Below, piece after piece: positions 20,451 through 45,549 of a stretch of DNA of 51,610 nucleotides; position 1 is the stretch's first letter; every line of letters begins with the position of its first letter. This DNA comes from Candidatus Onthoplasma sp. GTDB lineage: Bacteria > Bacillota > Clostridia > Christensenellales > UBA1242. Both the position numbers and the translations under genes were made by a program. Below the pieces are notes generated by a model that had not been told where the DNA came from, searched no databases, and was given only the letters and a program-made list of their open reading frames with translations. The DNA lies in the NCBI GenBank assembly GCA_045598895.1, contig JAZRUZ010000049.1, forward strand, positions 1 through 51,610. Direction: 5' to 3'.

Positions 20451-20525
20451 TGGCGCCCAGTGTAGGGCTCGAACCTACAACCTACCGGTTAACAGCCGGT
20501 TGCTCCACCATTGAGCTAACTAGGC
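20451..20525 (-). tRNA. tRNA-Asn(GTT)
   Basis: Cloverleaf GCCTAGT...ACTGGGC-G-CCA; anticodon arm ACCGG-CTGTTAA-CCGGT; GGTTCGA T-loop. Confidence 0.97.
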
Positions 20526-32100: not shown

Positions 32101-33492
32101 CTAATATTCGCAGTTGTTTGGAGTACGAGGGAAAGGAATTGCGTCACGAATGTTTTCAACACCTGTCAAGTACATTACTAACCTCTCAAAGCCCATACCG
32201 AATCCAGAGTGGACACAACTACCGAATTTTCTTAAATTTAAGAACCAATCTATCGGTTTAGTATCAACATTCATCTCCTTGCAACGAGACATAATCTTCT
32301 CATAATTCTCTTCACGTTGACTTCCACCCATAAGTTCGCCAGAACCTGGCACTTCAAGGTCTACAGCAGCAACTGTCTCGCCATCTTCGTTTAATTTCAT
32401 ATAATAGGCTTTAATATCTTTTGGCCAATTCTTAATAAACACAGGGCCACCGAAATGTTCAGTGAGCCACTTTTCGTGTTCCTTCGCAATGTCTTCGCCT
32501 TGTTTTGGCTCAAATTCCCATTTTACATTTGCCTTAATAAGTAAATCAATAGCGTCTTTATGGTCAATTCGAACAAACTTGCTATTTACCAATTTTTCTA
32601 ACTTTTCTCTTAAACCCTTTTCAACGAAACTAGATAAGAAATCAATTTCTTCATGGCAACTGTCAAGAACATATTTTACAACGAATTTAAGCATTTCTTC
32701 TTCGATGTCCATAAGTTCCTCAAGGTCACAGAAAGCAATTTCCGGTTCAATCATCCAGAATTCGTTAGCGTGTGTCTTTGTGTTGCTGTTTTCAGTTCTA
32801 AATGTTGGTCCAAATGTGTAAATTTTATTAAACGCAAGCGCAAAAGCCTCGCCGTGTAATTGTCCACTTCCGGTAATGTAAGATTTTTTACCGAAAAGGT
32901 CTTTTTCTACATCTAGTCCACCATTTTCATTGATAGGTGGATTTTCAAAATTAAGAGTTGTGATTTTAAACATTTGATCACTGCCTTCACAGTCGGTCGT
33001 AGTAATCAATGGGGTGTTTACATACACATAACCGTGATTTTGGAAATAGGTGTGAATTGCGATAGCCGCCACCGAACGCACTCTAAACACAGCGCTAAAC
33101 AAATTTGTTCTAGGACGAAGGTAAGCGAGTTCTCTTAAATATTCAAGCGTACTACCTTTCTTTTGAAGTGGATAAGTTGAATCTGTTTCGTTGAATACTT
33201 CTACATTTTCAGCCTCGATTTCGAAAGGTTGTTTCATCTCAGGAGTAAGTTTAACCTTGCCTGTAACGATAATTGTAGAACCTGTATTTAACTTTGAAAC
33301 CTTGTCGTAGTTATCTAATTTTTCAGCATTTAAAACAACTTGAACACCCTTAAAACATGTTCCGTCATTCAAGTCGATAAAACCAAAATTTTTCATGTCC
33401 CTTGCACTCTTTACCCAACCAGCCAAGGTAACAACTTGTCCATCTAAATCTTTATATTTAGATTTTAGTTCCTTAATATCTATTTTTAACAT
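32101..33492 (-). CDS. asnS: Asparagine--tRNA ligase
   Basis: FIDLNDGT, LRPRTN, YTFGPTFRTENSNT...EFWMIEPE, GGSQRE, GFGMGFER. Confidence 0.95.
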   Translation of the reverse strand: MLKIDIKELKSKYKDLDGQVVTLAGWVKSARDMKNFGFIDLNDGTCFKGVQVVLNAEKLDNYDKVSKLNTGSTIIVTGKVKLTPEMKQPFEIEAENVEVFNETDSTYPLQKKGSTLEYLRELAYLRPRTNLFSAVFRVRSVAAIAIHTYFQNHGYVYVNTPLITTTDCEGSDQMFKITTLNFENPPINENGGLDVEKDLFGKKSYITGSGQLHGEAFALAFNKIYTFGPTFRTENSNTKTHANEFWMIEPEIAFCDLEELMDIEEEMLKFVVKYVLDSCHEEIDFLSSFVEKGLREKLEKLVNSKFVRIDHKDAIDLLIKANVKWEFEPKQGEDIAKEHEKWLTEHFGGPVFIKNWPKDIKAYYMKLNEDGETVAAVDLEVPGSGELMGGSQREENYEKIMSRCKEMNVDTKPIDWFLNLRKFGSCVHSGFGMGFERLVMYLTGVENIRDAIPFPRTPNNCEY

Positions 33493-37009: not shown

Positions 37010-40000
37010 TTACCTTTCTCTTTCATCTAATAAGGAAACATAAATAATCATGAAACCTATCAATAAAATATTTATTATCATCAAAGTTAAACAAATGTAG
37101 CACTTGCATGCCAATAATCCAAGTAAACCAAGAATAATGCTAGTTATTAGACACAACGTTAAAGAAATTTGCAAAATAAACTTTTTGAAATTAATTACAA
37201 AATATAACAACAATAACACTGCTGATAAAAGCAAAATTACCGGCAATAAATAATGGCATTGGCATACAACATTTCCATTTACTTTCTCAAATTCTGCAGT
37301 AATTGTTACATCGAATTGAGGCATTACAAATGTATATTTTGTATTATCTTGACTATCTTGAATTAATTCAATAGTTTTTTCAGTTCCATCAACGTACTTG
37401 GCTATTAGACTATCTGTTTTTAATGTATAACCATCGTTTGCTAAAACAATAAATGTCACAATTTCGCCTGAAACCATAGTTGTTTCATCAATTGAAATAT
37501 ATCCATTATTTTCGTCTTTAGTTTCAAGTGTTAAATCACTTGTTATTACATAAGTTTTCTTAATAATCTTAACTTGTTTTGCATTCTCATCAACAATCAA
37601 ATATCCATTTTGATCAATTTGTCCTCCAATCACAATATAGTCTTCTGGAATGACTACTTTGGTACTGTCACTCATAGGATATCCATATTTATTAATATTT
37701 ATAATAAGAGAACCACCATCAATAATAGTCAATACATCGCAATAAATACCACAATCAGTTGCAGTTATAACTAAATCCTTACTTACTGTTATATTCCCCG
37801 TAGTAGATATACCAACTTGCGCTTTTATATTAGTATCAACAGATATCGAAAGATTGTTGTTATCTGCATCTATTCCTATAATGCCAGCATCAATATTGAG
37901 TGTCGCATTACCGGTAATACTAATGGTTTCGTCTTGCGTGTCATTTCCCGCAAATTCAATTGCTGTTGAAGGTGTTTTTATTGTTGTGTCACCTTCTACA
38001 ACTATATTTATATTGTTTGGTAGTTTCAATGCTGATTCATCTGACGTATTATATAGATTTATTTCGTCAAGTGTTAAATTTAATCTATCTAAATCATCAA
38101 CTGAGAATTCTGCATTACCTCCATTGGTTTCCAATAATTCTATAGTTTCTTGTAACTCAGTAGACTCATCTATATCTTCTTGAGTTTCAAATATAAAGGT
38201 TGTTAAATCTATAGGTTTATTGATTGATTTTTGCTCACCTATATTAAATTGAGTTGCAGAAGAAAGTTTGTCTTCAACTTTAAAATACACATAGTATAAC
38301 CCATATCCATTCTTTGCAATTTCCGTTATTTCCTCTTCACTAATTGTTACAGAATAACCAGGATTGACCGCATCACTTTCCCAAACTGTATTTCCATTAA
38401 CATCTTTTAACACAATCGTTCCAGATAAATTTGTGTCTTCATTTTTGATTGCTAATGTGTGGCCTTGAAGCGTTGGATTAATATAATCTGTAGATATACT
38501 TGGTTGTGATGGAACAATATCGAAACTGCCTGATTTAATAAACACAGCAGAATCATAACTACTATCAGAAACATCAGAAATACATAATTTTAATTCATAA
38601 GTTTTGCCTTGTTCAACCTTAAATGTAGCGTCATATAAATTTGTTATACCATTAAAAGGAAGTTCACTATAGAATTTTGATGGTCTCATTTCATTATCAC
38701 CATTTAGTGATACAGGATCTAAGAATTGAACTGTAGTTTCATTATGATCAAAATTCTTGTCTTTTAGGCTATTTATCAAATTTGTAACAGTGATATTTAC
38801 GTTAGGATCATCAACTTTTGACTTTGGCATAATAGCAAGATTTTCAAAAGAGTCACCATCAACATCTCGTGCAAAAAGTGCAAAAATATCATTGTATTGA
38901 GCATTTTGATCCATCTCAGGACTTGCAAAGCTATAACGGAACAAAAGTGTACCTGTGAGTTTAGCAGTAACTTTAAAAGTTAAAACTGCAGTATCATATA
39001 AATTATATTCATTAGGACTAACTTCAGCATCAAGTAAAGTTTTTAAATCTAAATCTCTTTCATTTGTTATTTCTGATTTTCCATTTTGTTGTGGTCCGCC
39101 ACCGTATGCAAAAATTTCTTTTGAATATCCACTTGATAATAATATTCCTTTATCCATACCGATAAGTTTTGCTTGAGATTCAGTTAAATCTAAAGAATTG
39201 AATATATAAAGTTGTCTATAATCTGAATAAAGGAAACTTGCAGAATCTTGAACATAATCTAGAGCACTATTATTTGTTCCTAGCAAATTTTCAACTGCAC
39301 GATTTGCTTTGTTTTTGTCTGGAACAGTATATTCGACAGTAAAATATAAAATATCTACATCAAACTCTTCACTGTATTCAATGTAAGGAGCACCTACTAA
39401 TGTTGCATTGCCTATTTTAAACTCGTTTGTTGCATAGTTTTCTTCAGGCATGAATGCCAAATTTTCATTCACTAATCCAAGCATAAAACTTGCTTCATAA
39501 GTTTCTCCAGCAATCCAATTTGATCCAATTTCAACATCTTCTTCATTATATCTAAAATTAACTCTAGACATATAACCGTTACCTTCTAATTCATAAGGCA
39601 CAGTTTCATAGTCATCAATATCAAATATGAAAGTATTAAAATATACCATAGGCAATTCAAGAATATAGTATGTGTCATAGTAATCATAAACACCGTTTTC
39701 TTTTGTTAAGCAAATACATATTTCTTCCTCAATATTAGACCAATTTTTTGAAAAATTTACAGTTAACAAAAAGTGTTTATTTTCATCCTCATATTCGTTT
39801 GTGTCTTTTTCAATTGACATAGATAATCCGTAATAAGAGATTTTATCATTGTATTCTTCAAGTTTCAAAGAAGAATATTCTTCACTATTAAAGTCATAAT
39901 AAGGAAAATAAAAATCATCTAATTCAACATTTTCAACACTTTTAACTACTAACGGATAAGTTACACTAGATTGTTTGTCACGATAAATAACAGCCTCACT

Positions 40001-40378
40001 TGGCTCACCAATTGACATTTCTTCTTTTAATATCGCTGTTATTGTTACATCTTTATTATAAGGCATGATAAAATAATATGCTTCGTAAGCATTATCATAT
40101 CTTATAACCACGTCACCAGATTCCCAACCAGCCAATTGACAACCCATCTCCAATCGAAGATTTAAAACAATTTTTTCTCCTCCACAAGCACTATAAACAT
40201 CAACATCTAATCCGCCTAAACTTTCATCATTAACACCAACTGTAATTTCGTGTTCATCTGCCGCATTGACAATCCAATCTTGATTTAAAAAAGAAATTGT
40301 AAATCCACAAAAAACTACGCACAAAAAGACAAGTGAACGCAAAATTATTTTATATTTTAATCCCCTATTTTTAATCAT
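37010..40378 (-). CDS. Large surface protein with a choice-of-anchor-L-like domain and a C-terminal membrane anchor
   Basis: Signal peptide; FRYSFASPE...NDIFALF...LKLCISDVSDSSYDSAVFI; FxMPxxDVTITA repeats; Cys-rich C-terminal TM segments. Confidence 0.7.
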   Translation of the reverse strand: MIKNRGLKYKIILRSLVFLCVVFCGFTISFLNQDWIVNAADEHEITVGVNDESLGGLDVDVYSACGGEKIVLNLRLEMGCQLAGWESGDVVIRYDNAYEAYYFIMPYNKDVTITAILKEEMSIGEPSEAVIYRDKQSSVTYPLVVKSVENVELDDFYFPYYDFNSEEYSSLKLEEYNDKISYYGLSMSIEKDTNEYEDENKHFLLTVNFSKNWSNIEEEICICLTKENGVYDYYDTYYILELPMVYFNTFIFDIDDYETVPYELEGNGYMSRVNFRYNEEDVEIGSNWIAGETYEASFMLGLVNENLAFMPEENYATNEFKIGNATLVGAPYIEYSEEFDVDILYFTVEYTVPDKNKANRAVENLLGTNNSALDYVQDSASFLYSDYRQLYIFNSLDLTESQAKLIGMDKGILLSSGYSKEIFAYGGGPQQNGKSEITNERDLDLKTLLDAEVSPNEYNLYDTAVLTFKVTAKLTGTLLFRYSFASPEMDQNAQYNDIFALFARDVDGDSFENLAIMPKSKVDDPNVNITVTNLINSLKDKNFDHNETTVQFLDPVSLNGDNEMRPSKFYSELPFNGITNLYDATFKVEQGKTYELKLCISDVSDSSYDSAVFIKSGSFDIVPSQPSISTDYINPTLQGHTLAIKNEDTNLSGTIVLKDVNGNTVWESDAVNPGYSVTISEEEITEIAKNGYGLYYVYFKVEDKLSSATQFNIGEQKSINKPIDLTTFIFETQEDIDESTELQETIELLETNGGNAEFSVDDLDRLNLTLDEINLYNTSDESALKLPNNINIVVEGDTTIKTPSTAIEFAGNDTQDETISITGNATLNIDAGIIGIDADNNNLSISVDTNIKAQVGISTTGNITVSKDLVITATDCGIYCDVLTIIDGGSLIININKYGYPMSDSTKVVIPEDYIVIGGQIDQNGYLIVDENAKQVKIIKKTYVITSDLTLETKDENNGYISIDETTMVSGEIVTFIVLANDGYTLKTDSLIAKYVDGTEKTIELIQDSQDNTKYTFVMPQFDVTITAEFEKVNGNVVCQCHYLLPVILLLSAVLLLLYFVINFKKFILQISLTLCLITSIILGLLGLLACKCYICLTLMIINILLIGFMIIYVSLLDERER

Positions 40379-40543: not shown

Positions 40544-40571
40544 TTGACAAACGATAGATTTATGCTATAAT
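40544..40571 (+). promoter_or_regulatory. Consensus sigmaA promoter with extended -10
   Basis: TTGACA-16-TATAAT with TG at 40563-40564. Confidence 0.8.
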
Positions 40572-40577
40572 ATTTAC

Positions 40578-40616
40578 ATGATTTTAATTCAGAAAGACGA
40601 CCAACAAGCACTTTAA
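40578..40616 (+). CDS. Candidate leaderless leader peptide MILIQKDDQQAL
   Basis: ATG lies 6 nt after the -10, the same geometry as other leaderless genes here; three Gln codons. Confidence 0.35.
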   Translation: MILIQKDDQQAL

Positions 40617-40665
40617 CACATTTAACATGGGTTTCTTTTTGATATTGAATAAGTTTAATTATTTT

Positions 40666-40702
40666 AAGTACCTTGGGAAATCCTTTAGGTACTTTTTATT
40701 TT
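40666..40702 (+). terminator. Intrinsic terminator upstream of gltX
   Basis: AAGTACCT-tgggaaatccttt-AGGTACTT followed by TTTATTTT. Confidence 0.75.
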
Positions 40703-40767
40703 TAGTTAAAATTTAGTGATATATTATTAAAAATATGTTATAATGTAAGAGAAAATTAGGAGAAGAT

Positions 40768-42450
40768 ATGACAAACGTAGATATCGCAGAATTACTATTT
40801 CCAGAAGTAAATTTAACAGTTGAAGATTTATTGAAACAATATCCTGAACGTAATTTACCAACTGACGCTGAAGTTACAAGATTTGCGCCAAGTCCAACAG
40901 GATATATTCACATAGGTGGTATTTTTCAATGCTTAATCAATTCTTATTTTGCGAAATCTCATAATGGTTTAATGTTTTTAAGATGTGAAGACACTGATAA
41001 ATTGCGTGAAGTTGAAGGTGCTGCTAATTTAATTTATCCTACTTTAACAAAAATGGGCATAGATGTTCAAGAAGGTTTTATAAGCACCAATGAAGAATTT
41101 GGAAATTATGGTCCATATTTACAAAGCAGAAGAAATATGTATTATAAAGTTTTCGCAAAAGATTTAGTTTCGAGAGGACTTGCTTACCCATGTTTCTGCG
41201 ATGGTGATGATGATGACGAGTGTGCCGAATATAGAAACGAACAAAAACGTTTAGGTGTTCCTATTGGTTATTATGGAAGATGGGCTAAATGTAGAAATTT
41301 GTCTTATGAGATGATTAAAGCAAATCTTGACGCTGGAAAGCCATTTAAAATAAGAATAAAAGCAGAAGGCGATGGCGAGAAAAAAATCATTGTTCACGAT
41401 ATGCTTCGTGGTGACCTTGTTATGCCTGAAAACTATATTGACTATGTAATTTTAAAATCAGACAAAACTGCCTTGTACCACCTAGCACATTTAGTAGACG
41501 ACACCTTGATGCATACGACGACTGTAATAAGAGATGAATCATGGCTTCCAAGTTTACCTTTACACTATCAATTATTTAAATATTTTAATTTTAAACAAAA
41601 GAACTACGTTCACACTGCTCAAGTGATGACAATAGATAAGGAAACAGGTGGAATTAGAAAAATAAGCAAGCGTTATGACGATTGGGCTGATTCTAGATGG
41701 TTCTTGGAAAAAGGTTATCCTGTTTTAGCAGTTCATGAATATCTTTTAAATTTAATCAATTCAAACTTCGAAAAATGGAGAAATGAAAATCCTGATAAAG
41801 ATATCAAAGAATTCCCTTTTGAAATAGAAAAGATGAACAAAAGTGGTTGCATCTTCGATCTTGAAAGATTAAATAGAATTTCTAAAAATGTTTTGTCAAA
41901 AATGAACAAAGACGAATTATTTGAAAAGGCATACGACTACGCATTAAATTATGACGAAAAATTAAAAAATTTAATCGAAGAAGATAAAGAATATTTTAAA
42001 AAGGTTATCAACATTGAACGTGAAAAAGAAAAACCTAGAAAAGACTTAACGACTTATGCCGAAATCTATGACGATATTTGGTATATGTATGACAAAGAGT
42101 TTATTAATAAGGAAAAATTTTATGAATTTTCAAAGCCAACAAGCAAAGAGGAAATTATAAAAATAGTTGAAACATACCTTGAAAAATGCCTTGATTTAAA
42201 CGACACTAAAGACGAATGGTTCAATAAAATTAAAACCCTTTGTGGTGAATTAAATTACGCTTGTTCTAAAAAAGAATATCTTGAGAACGCCGATAAATTT
42301 AAAGGTGACATTGCTGACGTTTGTTCTATATTAAGATCAGTATTTACTTCAAAAAGCAGAACACCTGATTTGTATGAAATCATCGAAGTTCTAGGCAAAG
42401 ATAAGTTAATAAAACGTTTTGAATATTTTAAAGAAATTTATAACAATTAA
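40768..42450 (+). CDS. gltX: Glutamate--tRNA ligase
   Basis: RFAPSPTGYIHIGG, LRCEDTD, YGPYLQS, AYPCFC, KISKR. Confidence 0.95.
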   Translation: MTNVDIAELLFPEVNLTVEDLLKQYPERNLPTDAEVTRFAPSPTGYIHIGGIFQCLINSYFAKSHNGLMFLRCEDTDKLREVEGAANLIYPTLTKMGIDVQEGFISTNEEFGNYGPYLQSRRNMYYKVFAKDLVSRGLAYPCFCDGDDDDECAEYRNEQKRLGVPIGYYGRWAKCRNLSYEMIKANLDAGKPFKIRIKAEGDGEKKIIVHDMLRGDLVMPENYIDYVILKSDKTALYHLAHLVDDTLMHTTTVIRDESWLPSLPLHYQLFKYFNFKQKNYVHTAQVMTIDKETGGIRKISKRYDDWADSRWFLEKGYPVLAVHEYLLNLINSNFEKWRNENPDKDIKEFPFEIEKMNKSGCIFDLERLNRISKNVLSKMNKDELFEKAYDYALNYDEKLKNLIEEDKEYFKKVINIEREKEKPRKDLTTYAEIYDDIWYMYDKEFINKEKFYEFSKPTSKEEIIKIVETYLEKCLDLNDTKDEWFNKIKTLCGELNYACSKKEYLENADKFKGDIADVCSILRSVFTSKSRTPDLYEIIEVLGKDKLIKRFEYFKEIYNN

Positions 42451-42460
42451 AAGGAAAAAT

Positions 42461-42745
42461 ATGGAAATCGATAAAACAAATATTAAAAGATTTGAAGATT
42501 TGTCAAAATTAAAATTTGATGAAGAAAAAGAAAACCAAATTTCTTTAGACTTTTTAGTTTGTGACGAAGTAAAAAGCAAAATCAACGAAAATACAAAAAA
42601 AGAATACACTCTACCTACATACGAAGTAGAGGTTGAAGATTTAAGAGAAGATATTGTTGAGCCATCTTATGACAGAAGCAAAGTTTTAGAAAATGCTCCA
42701 CATAAAGATAGTTTATCCTTTATCGTTCCAAAGGTGGTGGAATAA
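42461..42745 (+). CDS. gatC: Amidotransferase subunit C (start revised from 42419)
   Basis: LSKLKF, LREDIVEPS, ENAP...FIVPKVVE; position before gatA. Confidence 0.85.
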   Translation: MEIDKTNIKRFEDLSKLKFDEEKENQISLDFLVCDEVKSKINENTKKEYTLPTYEVEVEDLREDIVEPSYDRSKVLENAPHKDSLSFIVPKVVE

Positions 42746-43992
42746 TGAAAAATTTTAAATCTATAAAAGAAAAAAATATTGCATTTTTAAATAAAGAATT
42801 TAATAAGCAAGATTTAATTTCTTGTTATACACAAAATAATAGCAAAAATGTGGAATTCTTTTCCAATTCAATTGAAAAAGCAAAACTTATTGATGAAAAA
42901 TTAGAAAAAGGTTGTGATTTAGGAAAACTTGCTGGTTGTTGTTTCTTAGTGGAAGACAATATTTTAGTTGAAGGCGAAAACTGCAACGCAGGACTTGAAA
43001 TCATTGACAATTTTAAGTCTATTTACACTGCTACTGCGATAAAAAAATTAATTGACGAAGATGCTATAATTTTAGGTAAGATTAAAACAAACGTAAATCA
43101 AACTGAAGTTGGTTTAGTAAACGAAATTAAAGATGGGTGTTTAAATATTAATAATACAAACGACGACTACTCTTTATTAAATGATTTTTGCGATGGAATA
43201 ATATGTTCCGACGTAAACAGCTCGATATTCGCTAAATCAAATTCGAATTTCGTTTCACTACGTGCTCCATATGGCTCAATTTCAAGATTTGGTGTAATTA
43301 GCCGTGTGCCAAGTTTTGAAACTATTTCATTTTTAACAAAAAACTATTTAGACGCATTAGATTTATACAATATTTGTAAAGGAAAAGATAAATTCGACTT
43401 AATTTCAAGAAATTTTGTAGAAAACGAAATTGCTGACTTTAATAATATTAAAATCGCTTGTGTAAAAAATTGTATAAACGACAAATTAAAAAACAAGTTT
43501 AATAATTTCGCTGAAATATCTCTTAACAACATTACACTTTTAAAAGACATTTATTCTGTTATAACACTACCTGAAACATCTAGCAATTTAGCAAGATTTG
43601 ACGGCATTAAATATGGTAAATTAGCTGAAAACTGCAACAACATTGAGGAAGTATATACAAAAACTCGTACTGAATTCTTTAGTGAAAATTTGAAACAAGA
43701 AATCATGTATGGTGACTATTTCTTGTCAGGTGGTAAAAGAGGCGAAGTTTATTACAACGCAAAATTGTTAATTGACGAATTAACTAGTCAAATAAAAGAC
43801 ACTTTAAATAAATACAACTTCTTACTAATACCTAATAATGACGACTACAAATTATTGCCAGCATTAATTGGATATCCTGCTGTAAATATTGAAAACGATT
43901 TTATTTTACTTTCAAAATGTGAAGCAGTAAATTCATTGTGCAAAGTTTCTAATGAAATTACTAACATTACAAAGGAGGGACAAAATGCTTAA
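42745..43992 (+). CDS. gatA: Amidotransferase subunit A, amidase signature degenerate
   Basis: YGSISRFG, ETSSNLARFDGIKYG, TRTEFF; EDNI in place of KDNI; no GGSSGGS. Confidence 0.85.
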   Translation: MKNFKSIKEKNIAFLNKEFNKQDLISCYTQNNSKNVEFFSNSIEKAKLIDEKLEKGCDLGKLAGCCFLVEDNILVEGENCNAGLEIIDNFKSIYTATAIKKLIDEDAIILGKIKTNVNQTEVGLVNEIKDGCLNINNTNDDYSLLNDFCDGIICSDVNSSIFAKSNSNFVSLRAPYGSISRFGVISRVPSFETISFLTKNYLDALDLYNICKGKDKFDLISRNFVENEIADFNNIKIACVKNCINDKLKNKFNNFAEISLNNITLLKDIYSVITLPETSSNLARFDGIKYGKLAENCNNIEEVYTKTRTEFFSENLKQEIMYGDYFLSGGKRGEVYYNAKLLIDELTSQIKDTLNKYNFLLIPNNDDYKLLPALIGYPAVNIENDFILLSKCEAVNSLCKVSNEITNITKEGQNA

Positions 43993-45394
43993 TGATAAAT
44001 ACGACTTAGTCGTAGGACTTGAAATTCACGCTGAACTTAATTCTAAAACAAAAGTTTTTTGTTCATGTGAAAACAAATATGGTGCTGAACCCAATACTTT
44101 AGTTTGTCCAATTTGTTTAGGTATGCCTGGTACTATTCCTCTACTTAATAAGCAATGTGTATTGCTAGCAGTTAAAGCAGGTCTTATGACTAACTGTGAA
44201 ATAAACGAGCACACTTTCTGGGAAAGAAAAAATTATTTCTACCCAGACTTAACTAAATCTTATCAAATAAGCCAAGTCACTAAACCAGTTTGCGTAAATG
44301 GTTACATTGAATTGGATAGTGGTAAGAAAATTAGAATAAGCGATATTCACCTAGAGGAAGATACCGGAAAATTAATCCACGATGGTGCTTATTCATATAT
44401 CGACTATAACAGGTGTTGTGTTCCTCTTATTGAAACGGTAACTGAACCAGATATATCCACTGCCGAAGAAGCCGTAGAATTCTTGATGAAGTTAAGAGAT
44501 ACATACATTTACGGTGATGTTGCAAAGTGCAAACTTGAACAAGGTGGTATGCGTTTTGACGTAAACTTATCTGTTAAACCAAAAGGTAGTACAACTCTAG
44601 GCAAACGTGTAGAAATGAAGAACCTTAATTCCTTCAAGTCTGTTAAAAATGCTATTGAATATGAGTTTAATAGACATGTAGAATTGCTTGAAAGTGGACA
44701 AATTGTTGACGAAGAGACAAGAAAATGGGACGACAGCAAAAATATGAGTTTCGCTATGCGTAAGAAAGATCCGGTTAGTCCATTTAGAGTCTTCCCTGAT
44801 CCAGATATTCCTGCAGTGCATATCAAACATGAAATTGTTGAAGATATCAAAGAAAATTTACCTTTAACACCAATGCAATTAAAATCTAAATACAAAAACG
44901 AATATAACTTGCCTGACTATGATATAAAAGTTTTAACTTCTACTAAAGAATTGTCAGATTTCTATAATGCTTGTCTAAAAATTTACAATAATCCAAAAGA
45001 GTTATCTAACTGGGTTATGGGTGAATTACTCCGTAACGTTAAAGATAAAATAACAATTTCTCCTGAAAAGTTTATTGAAGTTATTAAAATGACTAAAGAA
45101 AACAAAATTTCAAGAATTAATGCTGTTGAAGTTATTGCTAGACTCATGATAACAGACGCAAACCCAATGGATATTGCAAAGGAATTAAACTTACTAAACG
45201 AAGCAATGTCAGAAGAAGAACTTGAAAAGTTGATTGTTGGAATAATTAATTCTAATCCAAAGGCTGTTGAAGACTATCAAAAGACACCAGACAAGATTAT
45301 TTCTTTCCTTGCTGGACAACTTATGAAATTAACACATGGCAAAGCAGATATAATCAAAGGAAAAGAAATTATTGAAACACATTTAAAAAATTAA
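43985..45394 (+). CDS. gatB: Amidotransferase subunit B (start revised from 43952)
   Basis: VGLEIHAEL, RKNYFYPDL, HLEEDTGK, DYNR...VTEPD, EMKNLNSF; AGGAGG RBS. Confidence 0.95.
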   Translation: MLNDKYDLVVGLEIHAELNSKTKVFCSCENKYGAEPNTLVCPICLGMPGTIPLLNKQCVLLAVKAGLMTNCEINEHTFWERKNYFYPDLTKSYQISQVTKPVCVNGYIELDSGKKIRISDIHLEEDTGKLIHDGAYSYIDYNRCCVPLIETVTEPDISTAEEAVEFLMKLRDTYIYGDVAKCKLEQGGMRFDVNLSVKPKGSTTLGKRVEMKNLNSFKSVKNAIEYEFNRHVELLESGQIVDEETRKWDDSKNMSFAMRKKDPVSPFRVFPDPDIPAVHIKHEIVEDIKENLPLTPMQLKSKYKNEYNLPDYDIKVLTSTKELSDFYNACLKIYNNPKELSNWVMGELLRNVKDKITISPEKFIEVIKMTKENKISRINAVEVIARLMITDANPMDIAKELNLLNEAMSEEELEKLIVGIINSNPKAVEDYQKTPDKIISFLAGQLMKLTHGKADIIKGKEIIETHLKN

Positions 45395-45549
45395 AATTAA
45401 TAATTTTATTTTGATTGTAAAAATTCAAACAAAAAAACTCCGACCGAATCGGTTGGAATTTTTTTGTTTAATGATTTAAAATAATAATATTTTATTTTTC
45501 AACTATTTAGCGATTTAAATTGCTAGTTTTAATTATAAATATTTTTCCT

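Follow-up and report, generated by a model that had tools for sequence, protein, structure and literature searches.

A candidate leaderless leader-peptide attenuator with glutamine codons upstream of an extra gltX and gatCAB in a small Candidatus Onthoplasma genome

Introduction

Leader-peptide attenuation is a textbook mechanism: in the trpL, hisL, leuL, thrL and pheL leaders of Enterobacteria a short ORF that carries codons for the cognate amino acid is followed by alternative 1:2, 2:3 and 3:4 hairpins and a terminator. The pheM leader of E. coli pheST is a leader-peptide attenuator of an aminoacyl-tRNA synthetase. The locus described here lies in a 51,610 bp stretch of Candidatus Onthoplasma sp. 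DNA (the window), upstream of a second glutamyl-tRNA synthetase gene (gltX2) and gatCAB. It resembles the classical attenuators in that a promoter-proximal ORF with codons of the amino acid whose supply would be controlled overlaps region 1 of a hairpin set. It differs from them in its leaderless start (the classical leaders use a Shine-Dalgarno (SD) sequence), in having only three cognate codons, in preceding tRNA-charging genes and not a biosynthetic pathway, in its weak antiterminator, formed with the terminator's apical part, in a second promoter 3' of that terminator, and in its host, a reduced Firmicutes-like genome, T-boxes being usual in Firmicutes. With pheM it would share the property that the charged tRNA sensed is the operon's own product, but the amino acid would be Gln and not Phe, charging takes the indirect route in two steps, by GluRS and then the amidotransferase, and the two leaders have no sequence relationship. 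Like a T-box it would sense charging and gate a terminator before aminoacyl-tRNA synthetase or gatCAB genes, but the proposed sensor is the translating ribosome, whereas a T-box binds the tRNA directly. Our literature search returned no description of leader-peptide attenuation for glutamine, gltX or gatCAB, and none of the Asn-codon gatCAB leaders that we describe below.

The downstream genes also have a described counterpart. Three papers on Helicobacter pylori report two divergent GluRS enzymes, GatCAB and no GlnRS, with the extra GluRS2 tied to the amidotransferase (PMC2777447, PMC3241645, PMC3927822), and one table of the last of these includes no Firmicutes genome with two GluRS. The present host likewise has a second divergent GluRS and GatCAB and no detected GlnRS; here, unlike in H. 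pylori, the extra GluRS gene is in one operon with gatCAB under the leader, and gltX2 may be specific for tRNA-Gln.

Results and Discussion

Promoters and the leader ORF

The first promoter, P1 (40544..40571, + strand), consists of TTGACA at 40544-49, a 16-nt spacer with a TGC end, and TATAAT at 40566-71. It is a 12/12 match with an extended -10 TG, and is one of 48 perfect promoters that a genome-wide scan found in the 774-kb genome. As an earlier note on this DNA had proposed, an ATG stands at the expected transcription start, 40578, 6 nt past the -10. It opens a candidate leaderless leader-peptide ORF (40578..40616, + strand) that encodes MILIQKDDQQAL in 12 codons and a stop: ATG ATT TTA ATT CAG AAA GAC GAC CAA CAA GCA CTT TAA. 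Three of these codons are for Gln (CAG at 40590-92 and CAA at 40602-04 and 40605-07), two for Asp (GAC GAC at 40596-601, codons 7-8) and one for Lys. Gln thus accounts for 3/11 leader codons as against 2.4% of codons in the genome's long ORFs (CAG 0.2%), which gives a P of about 0.002; this value is post hoc and should be relaxed by a factor of 2-4, since other amino acids might equally have been named, and the enrichment is modest.

Is a start codon in this position plausible in this genome? An ATG is found 6 or 7 nt 3' of a -10 in 29 cases genome-wide, and in 21 of them it opens an ORF of at least 100 aa (14 at 6 nt and 7 at 7 nt); the corresponding numbers are 0/13 at 2-5 nt and 0/8 at 8 nt. 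The commonness of such 6-7 nt starts supports leaderless translation of the leader ORF. A second small ORF of 29 codons, which starts at ATG 40627 and extends across the terminator, has neither an SD nor a leaderless context and was set aside. Directly after the leader ORF comes a block conserved with relatives in alignment, CACATTTAACAT(G) (40617..40628, + strand), whose second in-frame TAA (40623-25) is the stop site of the type-B leaders discussed below.

A weaker promoter, P2 (40716..40744, + strand), is placed 3' of the terminator and 5' of gltX2. It has GTGATA, a 17-nt spacer and TG-n-TATAAT (TGTTATAAT at 40736-44), is a 10/12 match with TG, and probably gives basal expression of the operon.

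RNA folding of the leader

The 133-nt leader has a minimum free energy (MFE) of -26.9 kcal/mol (z = -3.08; 1/200 shuffles was as stable), and its MFE fold is made up of a helix between the ORF and region 2 plus the terminator. Region 1 (40583..40602, + strand) is inside the ORF and pairs with 40630-40649 of region 2 (40629..40649, + strand), much as had been suggested for the segment around 40628-40650; this 1:2 duplex has an energy of -16.2 kcal/mol (z = -3.0) and ranks second in stability among the family's leaders. The intrinsic terminator (40666..40703, + strand) has arms at 40666-73 and 40687-94, forming the hairpin AAGTACCT...AGGTACTT at 40666-40694, and continues into TTTTTATTTTT, with the U-tract at 40693-40703; folded alone it has -12.4 kcal/mol. 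The order first read from this DNA, a Gln-codon ORF and then a terminator before gltX, is therefore present. A simple terminator scan gave 0 sites in the leader region because the 13-nt loop of this hairpin exceeds the scan's 8-nt loop limit.

The 5' part of region 2, GGGUUUCUU (40629-37), is the 5' strand of a candidate antiterminator whose 3' strand, GGGAAAUCC (40675-83), is also the terminator's apical part. This pairing would exclude the terminator and has -10 to -12 kcal/mol. Folding both conformers, a check that the earlier note had called for, gave -12.4 kcal/mol for the terminator and -10.1 to -11.5 kcal/mol for the antiterminator. In the 1:2 / 2:3 / 3:4 layout claimed previously, the 2:3 helix then named (40628-50 with 40654-73) reaches only -4.9 kcal/mol, and 40629-37 with 40675-83 is a better competitor for the terminator. 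Measured as a duplex, 2:3 of the gltX2 leader has -10.3 kcal/mol (z -1.6) and is the weakest among the 14 leaders with a valid measure.

When a ribosome was modelled as a mask on the RNA and the remainder folded to equilibrium, the terminator was favoured at every ribosome position, with P(terminator) 0.78-0.87. When region 1 was masked and the transcript was allowed to grow, the antiterminator was the MFE structure up to a 3' end at 40691 (-11.5 to -12.3 kcal/mol); the completed terminator conformer is then better by only 1.4 kcal/mol, and a barrier of about 14 kcal/mol lies on the direct path from one conformer to the other. In these models the antiterminator is thus a structure that wins co-transcriptionally only and loses at equilibrium. 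With the ribosome at the leader stop codon 40581-98 is still able to pair with region 2 (-11.4 kcal/mol). A point against the switch is that the leader ORF ends 9 nt before the type-B ORFs do, so a ribosome at its stop leaves region 2 uncovered.

Searches with Rfam models gave two tRNAs only and no leader family in the whole window at the gathering score, and chance-level matches only between 40300 and 40900 at E up to 10 (the SpF01 sRNA, which scored 25 bits where the gathering score is 55, plus three more; best E 0.33). The T-box model RF00230 had no match at the gathering score in the window, nor any between 40300 and 40900 with the E limit at 10, in accord with the previous statement that no T-box is visible at the locus.

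Asn-codon leaders in related genomes

An Asn-rich short ORF, an antiterminator and a terminator are found 5' of gatCAB(-aspS) in 13/13 genomes of the same genus that have gatB and lack AsnRS; 11 of these leaders are complete, and at contig ends one is without its first bases and one has its 3' half only. The layout 5' of gatC is a promoter, a short ORF with Asn codons (for example, MIILANDNNNNI, MLILNNNDNNLD or MFFINNNNNNNLNHI, each ended by a stop codon) and a terminator. Genomes G335 and G285 also have Asn leaders, before gatCAB(-aspS) or aspS-gatCAB, and the number of Asn codons per leader ORF is 5-9 in 14 relatives. The start signal is leaderless in all six type-A relatives (ATG 6-7 nt 3' of the -10) and an SD in six or more other leaders.

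The 2:3 antiterminator duplexes of the relatives have energies of -11.2 to -21.3 kcal/mol, with z of -2.7 to -5.2 in 12/13; the exception is G008 (z -1.8), which has its own AsnRS. In the type-B antiterminator three pairs are changed on both sides (n = 6 sequences) and 86% of cells are paired. The observed covariation counts were reached by 17/500 shuffles, a figure for the whole submitted structure, in which the register of the terminator helix was wrong and the antiterminator helix alone is usable. In masked-ribosome folding 5/6 type-B leaders switch: P(terminator) is about 0 while the ribosome sits on the Asn codons and 0.83-0.99 once it is at the stop. The G285 leader switches likewise; for the type-A relatives, equilibrium modelling yields patterns that are mixed or reversed. 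Three genomes of the same family have an Asn T-box 5' of aspS-gatCAB (aligned specifier AAC; RF00230 135-140 bits), and there were 0 Rfam matches at 15 gatC-upstream loci of relatives.

The relatives bear on a reading of the unit as a separate small RNA about 120 nt long, made from P1 to the terminator and acting in trans or binding protein, with gltX2-gatCAB expressed independently from P2. The strong promoter and terminator that the unit has to itself, the separate promoter before gltX2 and equilibrium folds that favour the terminator would all suit such an RNA. The earlier note was right that gltX has its own promoter, but the use of P2 as an argument for a small RNA is weakened by three relatives with long spacers between attenuator and gatC, which have an extended -10 in the same position. 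In eight other relatives the terminator abuts the gatC ribosome-binding site and the unit ends 20-56 nt before the gatC start, which leaves no room for a second promoter, so that the unit there is the operon's 5' leader. Also against a small RNA, the short ORF and its start signal are kept across subtypes, the unit matches no Rfam family at the gathering score, and a DNA query found no other copy in the host genome. We regard this reading as very improbable.

A second alternative concerns what is sensed. The attenuator might be multivalent or differently tuned, responding to Asp-tRNA at GAC GAC in addition to Gln-tRNA or in its place, or to any slowing of translation over codons 3-10. The tandem Asp codons indeed fall within the stretch of the ORF that forms the helix with region 2, and Asp codons break up the Asn runs in 6/6 type-A relatives, whose operons include aspS. 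The gltX2 operon has no aspS, however (AspRS is encoded elsewhere in the host genome), and GAC GAC supplies G/C pairs of the 1:2 helix and so may be structural. We consider this alternative distinctly unlikely, only a little less so than the small RNA.

Kinship of the gltX2 leader with the Asn leaders

The gltX2 leader has the same position and architecture as the Asn gatCAB leaders, an alignable ORF, the block CACATTTAA-ATG-GG and the leaderless spacing of type A. Its ORF aligns codon for codon with that of the type-B leader B_G057, in which seven Asn face the Q K D D Q Q A of the gltX2 leader, and the two have CTT, CAC ATT TAA and ATG-GG in common. The CAC is invariant in 14/14 aligned leaders, the 13-mer CACATTTAACATG is identical to that of G058, and the block ATGGGTT(T/C)C is common to region 2 of the gltX2 leader and to the G285 leader. 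A covariance model built from six relatives has its best window match at precisely 40578 (+ strand); the score is 20.1 bits, with E 0.81 for a search of 203 kb, and is not significant alone. The same model finds 6/6 type-A relatives and loci L078 and L108 at E 0.014 or lower. Against this, the gltX2 leader has Gln, Lys and Asp in place of Asn, a weaker antiterminator, and gltX2 where the Asn operons carry aspS. Its ORF contains 0 Asn, and thus not the Asn run of the family; on its sequence it is a derived variant and not a typical Asn-leader member.

Could it then be a relic? In this account it descends from an Asn-codon attenuator whose Asn codons drifted once tRNA-Asn was charged directly, and it would now be a largely constitutive terminator or a general translation-rate sensor, with gltX2-gatCAB expressed mainly from P2. 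The weak antiterminator, the terminator favoured in all modelled states, the stop codon that is premature relative to the type-B frame and the low covariance-model score (20.1 bits, E 0.81) all point this way, and the absence of Asn among 11 codons is not unusual by chance (P 0.43). Such relics appear to persist: G008, which has AsnRS and GlnRS, retains an Asn leader with a terminator that stays closed throughout the modelling. The functional parts of the gltX2 leader are nevertheless intact in spite of deep divergence (GatB 46-49% identical to the genus, 66% to the closest), including the 12/12 promoter, the leaderless-spaced ATG, the open frame, the U-tract terminator and the -16.2 kcal/mol 1:2 duplex. 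The replacement codons, moreover, contain G/C and are enriched for a rare amino acid, unlike the drift expected at 30% GC. We judge decay to a relic to be unlikely, though less so than the other two alternatives.

The Gln-type leader was found in only one instance among the loci compared. The earlier note had proposed aligning gltX upstream regions to look for conserved Gln codons: the five nearest gltX2 orthologues (L114-L118, 50-64% identity) have no such leader, and the closest cluster, G399 (gltX 64%, GatB 66%), has plain promoters. A DNA search of 41 related genomes with the 231-nt unit returned promoter-like or AT-rich stretches only. Searches for closer relatives found six loci in genome contigs, which reached 52% identity at most and lacked both a leader and a downstream gatCAB, and two in metagenome contigs, neither of them close.

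Proposed mechanism

On balance we favour, with moderate confidence, the reading in which gltX2-gatC-gatA-gatB is preceded by a ribosome-mediated leader-peptide transcription attenuator. The core of the earlier proposal, a leaderless Gln-codon leader gating a terminator before a Gln-tRNA operon, gains support from the Asn layout in relatives, the Asn T-boxes at that position in three family members, the codon alignment and the 21 long ORFs that an ATG opens 6-7 nt past a -10. The species sensed is probably Gln-tRNA, which we infer from this one instance. The switch would work as follows: the transcript would begin at the A of ATG 40578, giving a leaderless RNA on which a ribosome translates the 12-codon ORF. 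If translation is unhindered or absent, 40583-40602 would pair with 40630-40649; this would free the terminator (40666-40694 plus the U-tract), and most transcripts would stop near 40700. If Gln-tRNA(Gln) is scarce, the ribosome would stall, most plausibly at CAG (codon 5) and CAA CAA (codons 9-10), and cover region 1. The 5' part of region 2 (40629-37), thereby freed, could pair with 40675-83 before the 3' arm of the terminator exists, and this antiterminator would let RNA polymerase continue into the operon for Gln-tRNA(Gln) synthesis. P2 (40716-44), being weaker, would supply basal expression.

The operon and its host

The first gene of the operon, gltX2 (40768..42450, + strand; SD AGGAG at 40758-62), encodes an extra, divergent GluRS of 560 aa with Pfam and NCBIfam GluRS matches. 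It was correctly placed in an operon with gatCAB by the earlier note, but it is not the housekeeping GluRS: it is 39% identical to all GluRS of the genus, while the host's other GluRS, on contig C57, is 46-74% identical to the same set, and because that copy is so much closer to the genus GluRS, gltX2 is the extra one. Its best match (64%) is from another genus. The gatC gene (42461..42745, + strand) begins at an ATG 10 nt 3' of the gltX2 stop, with AAAGGAAAAA before it, and like gatA (42745..43992, + strand) was identified by domain matches. The GatA protein is short (415 aa) and lacks the amidase signature motifs; the missing signature residues imply that the enzymology of the operon is non-standard, which counts against the favoured reading. 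The gatB gene (43952..45394, + strand) is well conserved, with a domain match to NF004012 at 554 bits; its product shares only 46-49% identity with GatB proteins of the genus and 66% with that of G399, the nearest one found.

The host genome encodes AsnRS (C49:32104-33480, 561 bits) and two GluRS, and a GlnRS profile search of it gave no match above the cut-off. This gene content shows a host predicted to require GatCAB for Gln and not for Asn, and the Gln codons of the leader fit this genome because AsnRS is present, GlnRS is undetected and the extra GluRS is in the operon. Genome G001 has the same repertoire (AsnRS and gatB present, GlnRS absent) and is without any leader, which speaks against the proposal. 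A possible history, to which we give somewhat less than even weight, is that a gltX2-gatCAB cluster with a relative in another genus captured, or kept before it, an Asn-sensing leader, and that Gln codons took the place of the leader's Asn codons when GatCAB came to be needed for Gln only. The result would be a self-regulating Gln-tRNA(Gln) module in a 0.77-Mb genome, with a dedicated GluRS and an amidotransferase whose GatA lacks the glutaminase residues.

These genomes offer a natural comparison: relatives have Asn codons, or else an Asn T-box, before the Asn branch of the pathway, and this host has Gln codons before the Gln branch. If the attenuator reading is true, sensing resides in the codons of the mini-gene, a few substitutions are enough to re-target it, and ribosome-read switches and T-boxes are interchangeable within one bacterial family; the locus is then a testable handle on the control of indirect tRNA charging in very small genomes.

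Some smaller observations on the operon and the tRNAs remain. The listed gatC ORF begins earlier than the ATG given above, at TTG 42419, and a hairpin scan found a terminator-like hairpin at the operon end (45439..45457, + strand). The acceptor end of tRNA-Asn, tried as a marker of GatCAB use, was uninformative, being G1-C72 in the host and in 4/4 relatives without AsnRS (those with a recovered tRNA-Asn; the G057 match was another tRNA cluster and was left out). Both tRNA-Gln genes of the host have U1-A72.

The leader ahead of gltX2-gatCAB

A 390-nt gap separates the divergent 1122-aa gene (37010-40378, minus strand) from gltX2 (40768), the extra GluRS copy that heads a gltX2-gatC-gatA-gatB operon. 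The parts of the upstream unit that the earlier note had described were read directly in the sequence of its plus strand as follows: a perfect sigma-70-type promoter, P1 (score 12/12), has TTGACA at 40544-49, a 16-nt spacer ending in TG-n and TATAAT at 40566-71; an ATG at the expected +1 (40578), 6 nt past the -10, opens the leader ORF MILIQKDDQQAL-stop (40578-40616); and a terminator hairpin with its U-tract lies at 40666-40703, ahead of gltX2. A weaker, extended -10 promoter, P2 (40716-44), is between this terminator and the gltX2 SD and start. The upstream side offers no same-strand gene for the terminator, so the simplest reading is a short transcript from P1 that would end at 40666-40703. 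The 133-nt leader folds at -26.9 kcal/mol (z -3.08) into two elements, a 20-bp helix (40583-40602 with 40630-49) and the terminator, and comparison with Rfam found no family. The product of the divergent gene has a Flg_new_2 (InlB B-repeat-like) domain as its sole Pfam match. A second small frame of 29 codons (ATG GGT TTC ..., 40627-40716), hydrophobic and basic, crosses the terminator; it has neither an SD nor a leaderless context, and its homologue in the related genome G285, ATGGGTTCC, is read within that genome's own leader frame.

To judge from the sequence, leaderless mRNAs are a normal gene start in the genome of the window, G000, since 21 of the 29 promoter-like sites with an ATG 6 or 7 nt past the -10 open ORFs of at least 100 aa (examples are C36:11280, C49:22716 and C10:2031), against 0/13 at spacings of 2-5 nt and 0/8 at 8 nt. 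The leader ORF has exactly this 6-7 nt geometry.

Asn-codon leaders in relatives

The genus collection comprises 64 genomes, 16 of which (G000 included) have gatB. In all 15 gatB-bearing relatives gatCAB is not beside gltX and is followed by a 580-aa AspRS gene, and 13 of them lack AsnRS. All 13 AsnRS-less relatives carry a promoter, a short Asn-codon-rich ORF and a terminator upstream of gatC (11 of these leaders are whole, one is missing the first bases, and of one the contig end leaves just the 3' half). There are two subtypes: in type A (six genomes; e.g. MIILANDNNNNI-stop and MLILNNNDNNLD-stop) the ATG lies 6-7 nt past the -10 in 6/6, as in the window, and in type B (e.g. MFFINNNNNNNLNHI-stop) the ORF is SD-started. 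G001, which has AsnRS and lacks GlnRS, has no leader at all ahead of gatCAB; G008, which has both enzymes, has retained an Asn leader, the terminator of which stays closed in every modelled state. Outside the genus, inspection of 29 order-wide gatC upstream regions found such a leader only in G335, and G285 (L108:1106-1250) has before aspS-gatCAB a leader ORF of 28 codons, nine of them Asn in a row, and the folding of a textbook switch. At the same place three further genomes of the family have a T-box (135-140 bits; L105:1023-1239, L106:1472-1690 and L107:988-1207) with the aligned specifier AAC, which points to interchange of T-box and leader peptide within the family.

The Asn leaders have strong antiterminators (-11 to -21 kcal/mol, z -1.8 to -5.2), and that of type B has three pairs changed on both sides, i.e. 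compensatory changes, in six sequences. In 5 of the 6 type-B leaders the modelled probability of the terminator rises from about 0 with the ribosome on the Asn codons to 0.83-0.99 with it at the stop codon. On these properties, the Asn leaders clearly look like cis-acting sensors of Asn-tRNA supply. Full-text literature searches found no paper joining gatCAB, leader peptide and attenuation, and none joining gltX, leader peptide and transcription attenuation; the papers retrieved on amidotransferase, leader peptide, asparagine codons and terminator did not appear to concern such an element.

Kinship of the window leader with the Asn leaders

MAFFT aligns the window ORF codon for codon with the type-B leader of genome G057 (M-I-L-I-Q-K-D-D-Q-Q-A-L-stop-H-I-stop over M-F-F-I-N-N-N-N-N-N-N-L-N-H-I-stop), and the two have in common CTT, CAC ATT TAA and then ATG-GG; the window 13-mer CACATTTAACATG is identical in G058. 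When a covariance model is built on the type-B leaders only (six sequences), it detects every type-A leader (6/6) as well as G335 and G285 at E <= 0.014, and its best match in the 51.6-kb window is exactly at 40578 on the plus strand. The score of this match is low, 20.1 bits (E 0.81 for 203 kb), which is what the loss of the Asn run from the window ORF leads one to expect. The model's alignment groups the window leader with that of G285, with TAA-CAC-ATT(T)AA ... ATGGGTT(T/C)C-TTTT in common. On this codon alignment and these common blocks, we take the window unit to be a derived member of the Asn-leader family. Its ORF has no Asn codons; in their place are three Gln (one of them the CAG codon, which accounts for 0.2% of genome usage), one Lys and two Asp. 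With Gln at 2.4% of long ORFs, a count of three among 11 codons has P about 0.002, and P is 0.0005 for three within the seven positions that face the Asn run; both values are post hoc and subject to a small factor for alternative amino acids.

The own promoter motif of gltX2, TGTTATAAT, had been taken as a hint that the unit is an independent sRNA. The motif is present, but the relatives weaken that hint: an extended -10 between terminator and gatC also occurs in three of them whose spacers are long (110-169 nt), and in eight others the terminator is 20-56 nt before the gatC start and a second promoter is absent, so by their arrangement the related units are leaders. The best reading of P2 is that it gives essential genes a basal level of transcription. 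The earlier note's observation of a uORF and terminator ahead of gltX-gatCAB stands, and its attenuator reading is well supported through kinship with the Asn-sensing leaders; the window unit is very probably a leader-peptide attenuator acting in cis, or a unit recently derived from such an attenuator.

Which amino acid requires GatCAB

AsnRS is present in G000 (window 32104-33480, 561 bits), a profile search found no GlnRS over the cut-off, and both tRNA-Gln genes have U1-A72, from which GatCAB in G000 is needed, on gene content, for Gln and not for Asn. PMC4206432 reports U1-A72 for GatCAB substrates; unlike that, tRNA-Asn is G1-C72 in G000 (window 20451-20525, minus strand) and in four AsnRS-less relatives (L109-L112:1501-1575), which must depend on GatCAB. 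About 21 of 60 other genus genomes sampled have neither GlnRS (TIGR00440 over cut-off) nor GatB, and the absence of GatB was confirmed with the TIGR00133 HMM in G005, G053, G024, G013 and G076 (91-98% complete). Besides a 530-aa MetRS, G005 (C4:58990-60381) and G053 (C1:483352-484743) have another, diverged MetRS-like gene of about 671 aa, a few kb away from asnS; G000 has one canonical MetRS copy only, and the distribution is complementary across the very few genomes compared.

Modelling of the proposed switch

With the ribosome out of the way, the sequestering helix of region 1 (40583-40602) with region 2 (40629-49) (-16.2 kcal/mol) and the terminator would both form. A ribosome whose A site holds any of codons 5-10 would cover region 1; the MFE of the growing transcript then pairs GGGUUUCUU (40629-37) with GGGAAAUCC (40675-83), extendable by 40620-25 with 40685-90, until the 3' end reaches 40691. 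The different pairing that had been suggested as antiterminator amounts to only -4.9 kcal/mol. In the finished transcript the terminator conformer is better by only 1.4 kcal/mol (-13.7 vs -12.3) and a barrier of about 14 kcal/mol lies on the direct path between the conformers, which makes a kinetically trapped antiterminator plausible. At the stop codon, 40581-98 behind the ribosome can re-pair with region 2 (-11.4 kcal/mol), which would restore termination. Against a switch, the terminator is favoured at equilibrium in every ribosome state (P 0.78-0.87), the antiterminator duplex ranks last in strength within the family (z -1.6), and the ORF ends 9 nt before the type-B stop position, so the terminating ribosome itself leaves region 2 unmasked. 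From this one instance and the kinetic modelling we lean towards Gln-tRNA sensing by a working switch in G000. The leader is a variation on an already known mechanism; what makes it chiefly interesting is that its sensor seems to have been re-targeted from Asn to Gln, matching the operon under its control.

The operon, its GluRS and its GatA

The genes downstream of the leader encode GluRS, GatC, GatA and GatB in operon-like packing (gatC starts 10 nt past the gltX2 stop), with a terminator-like hairpin 3' of gatB. The G000 genome (774 kb, 30.5% GC) has two GluRS genes, which share 40% identity. One, on contig C57 (G000:C57:1149-2810, L051), has a plain promoter and SD; its identity is 68-74% to one genus subgroup and 46-51% to the other, and by this measure it is the genus orthologue. 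The window GluRS (40768-42450) is 37-40% identical to every genus GluRS and best matches other genera of the family (G399 64%, G389 62%); its GatB is 66% identical to that of G399 vs 46-49% to genus GatB. The cluster thus looks transferred, or at least of other descent than the genus gatCAB. In G399 gltX lies next to gatCAB in divergent orientation, and both have plain promoters and no leader. An uncultured 'Mycoplasma sp.' contig has a gltX homologue (39% identity to gltX2) that is immediately preceded by a tRNA-like sequence with a CTG anticodon context (L057:2760-2840). A two-GluRS system is known in H. pylori (PMC2777447, PMC3241645), and among the genomes consulted in the PMC3927822 table none with two GluRS is from Firmicutes.

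The window GatA (42745-43992) is short, 415 aa vs about 475, and alignment to S. aureus GatA (PDB 2df4_A) places Glu at Lys79 and Asn at Ser154. It is without the xKDN, GGSSGG and DTGGS(I/V)RQP motifs, which are kept in five other GatA proteins of the family and in G014 GatA. Lys79 and Ser154 are glutaminase-site triad positions. The glutaminase site looks dead, while GatB is intact, and this amidotransferase may run on ammonia.
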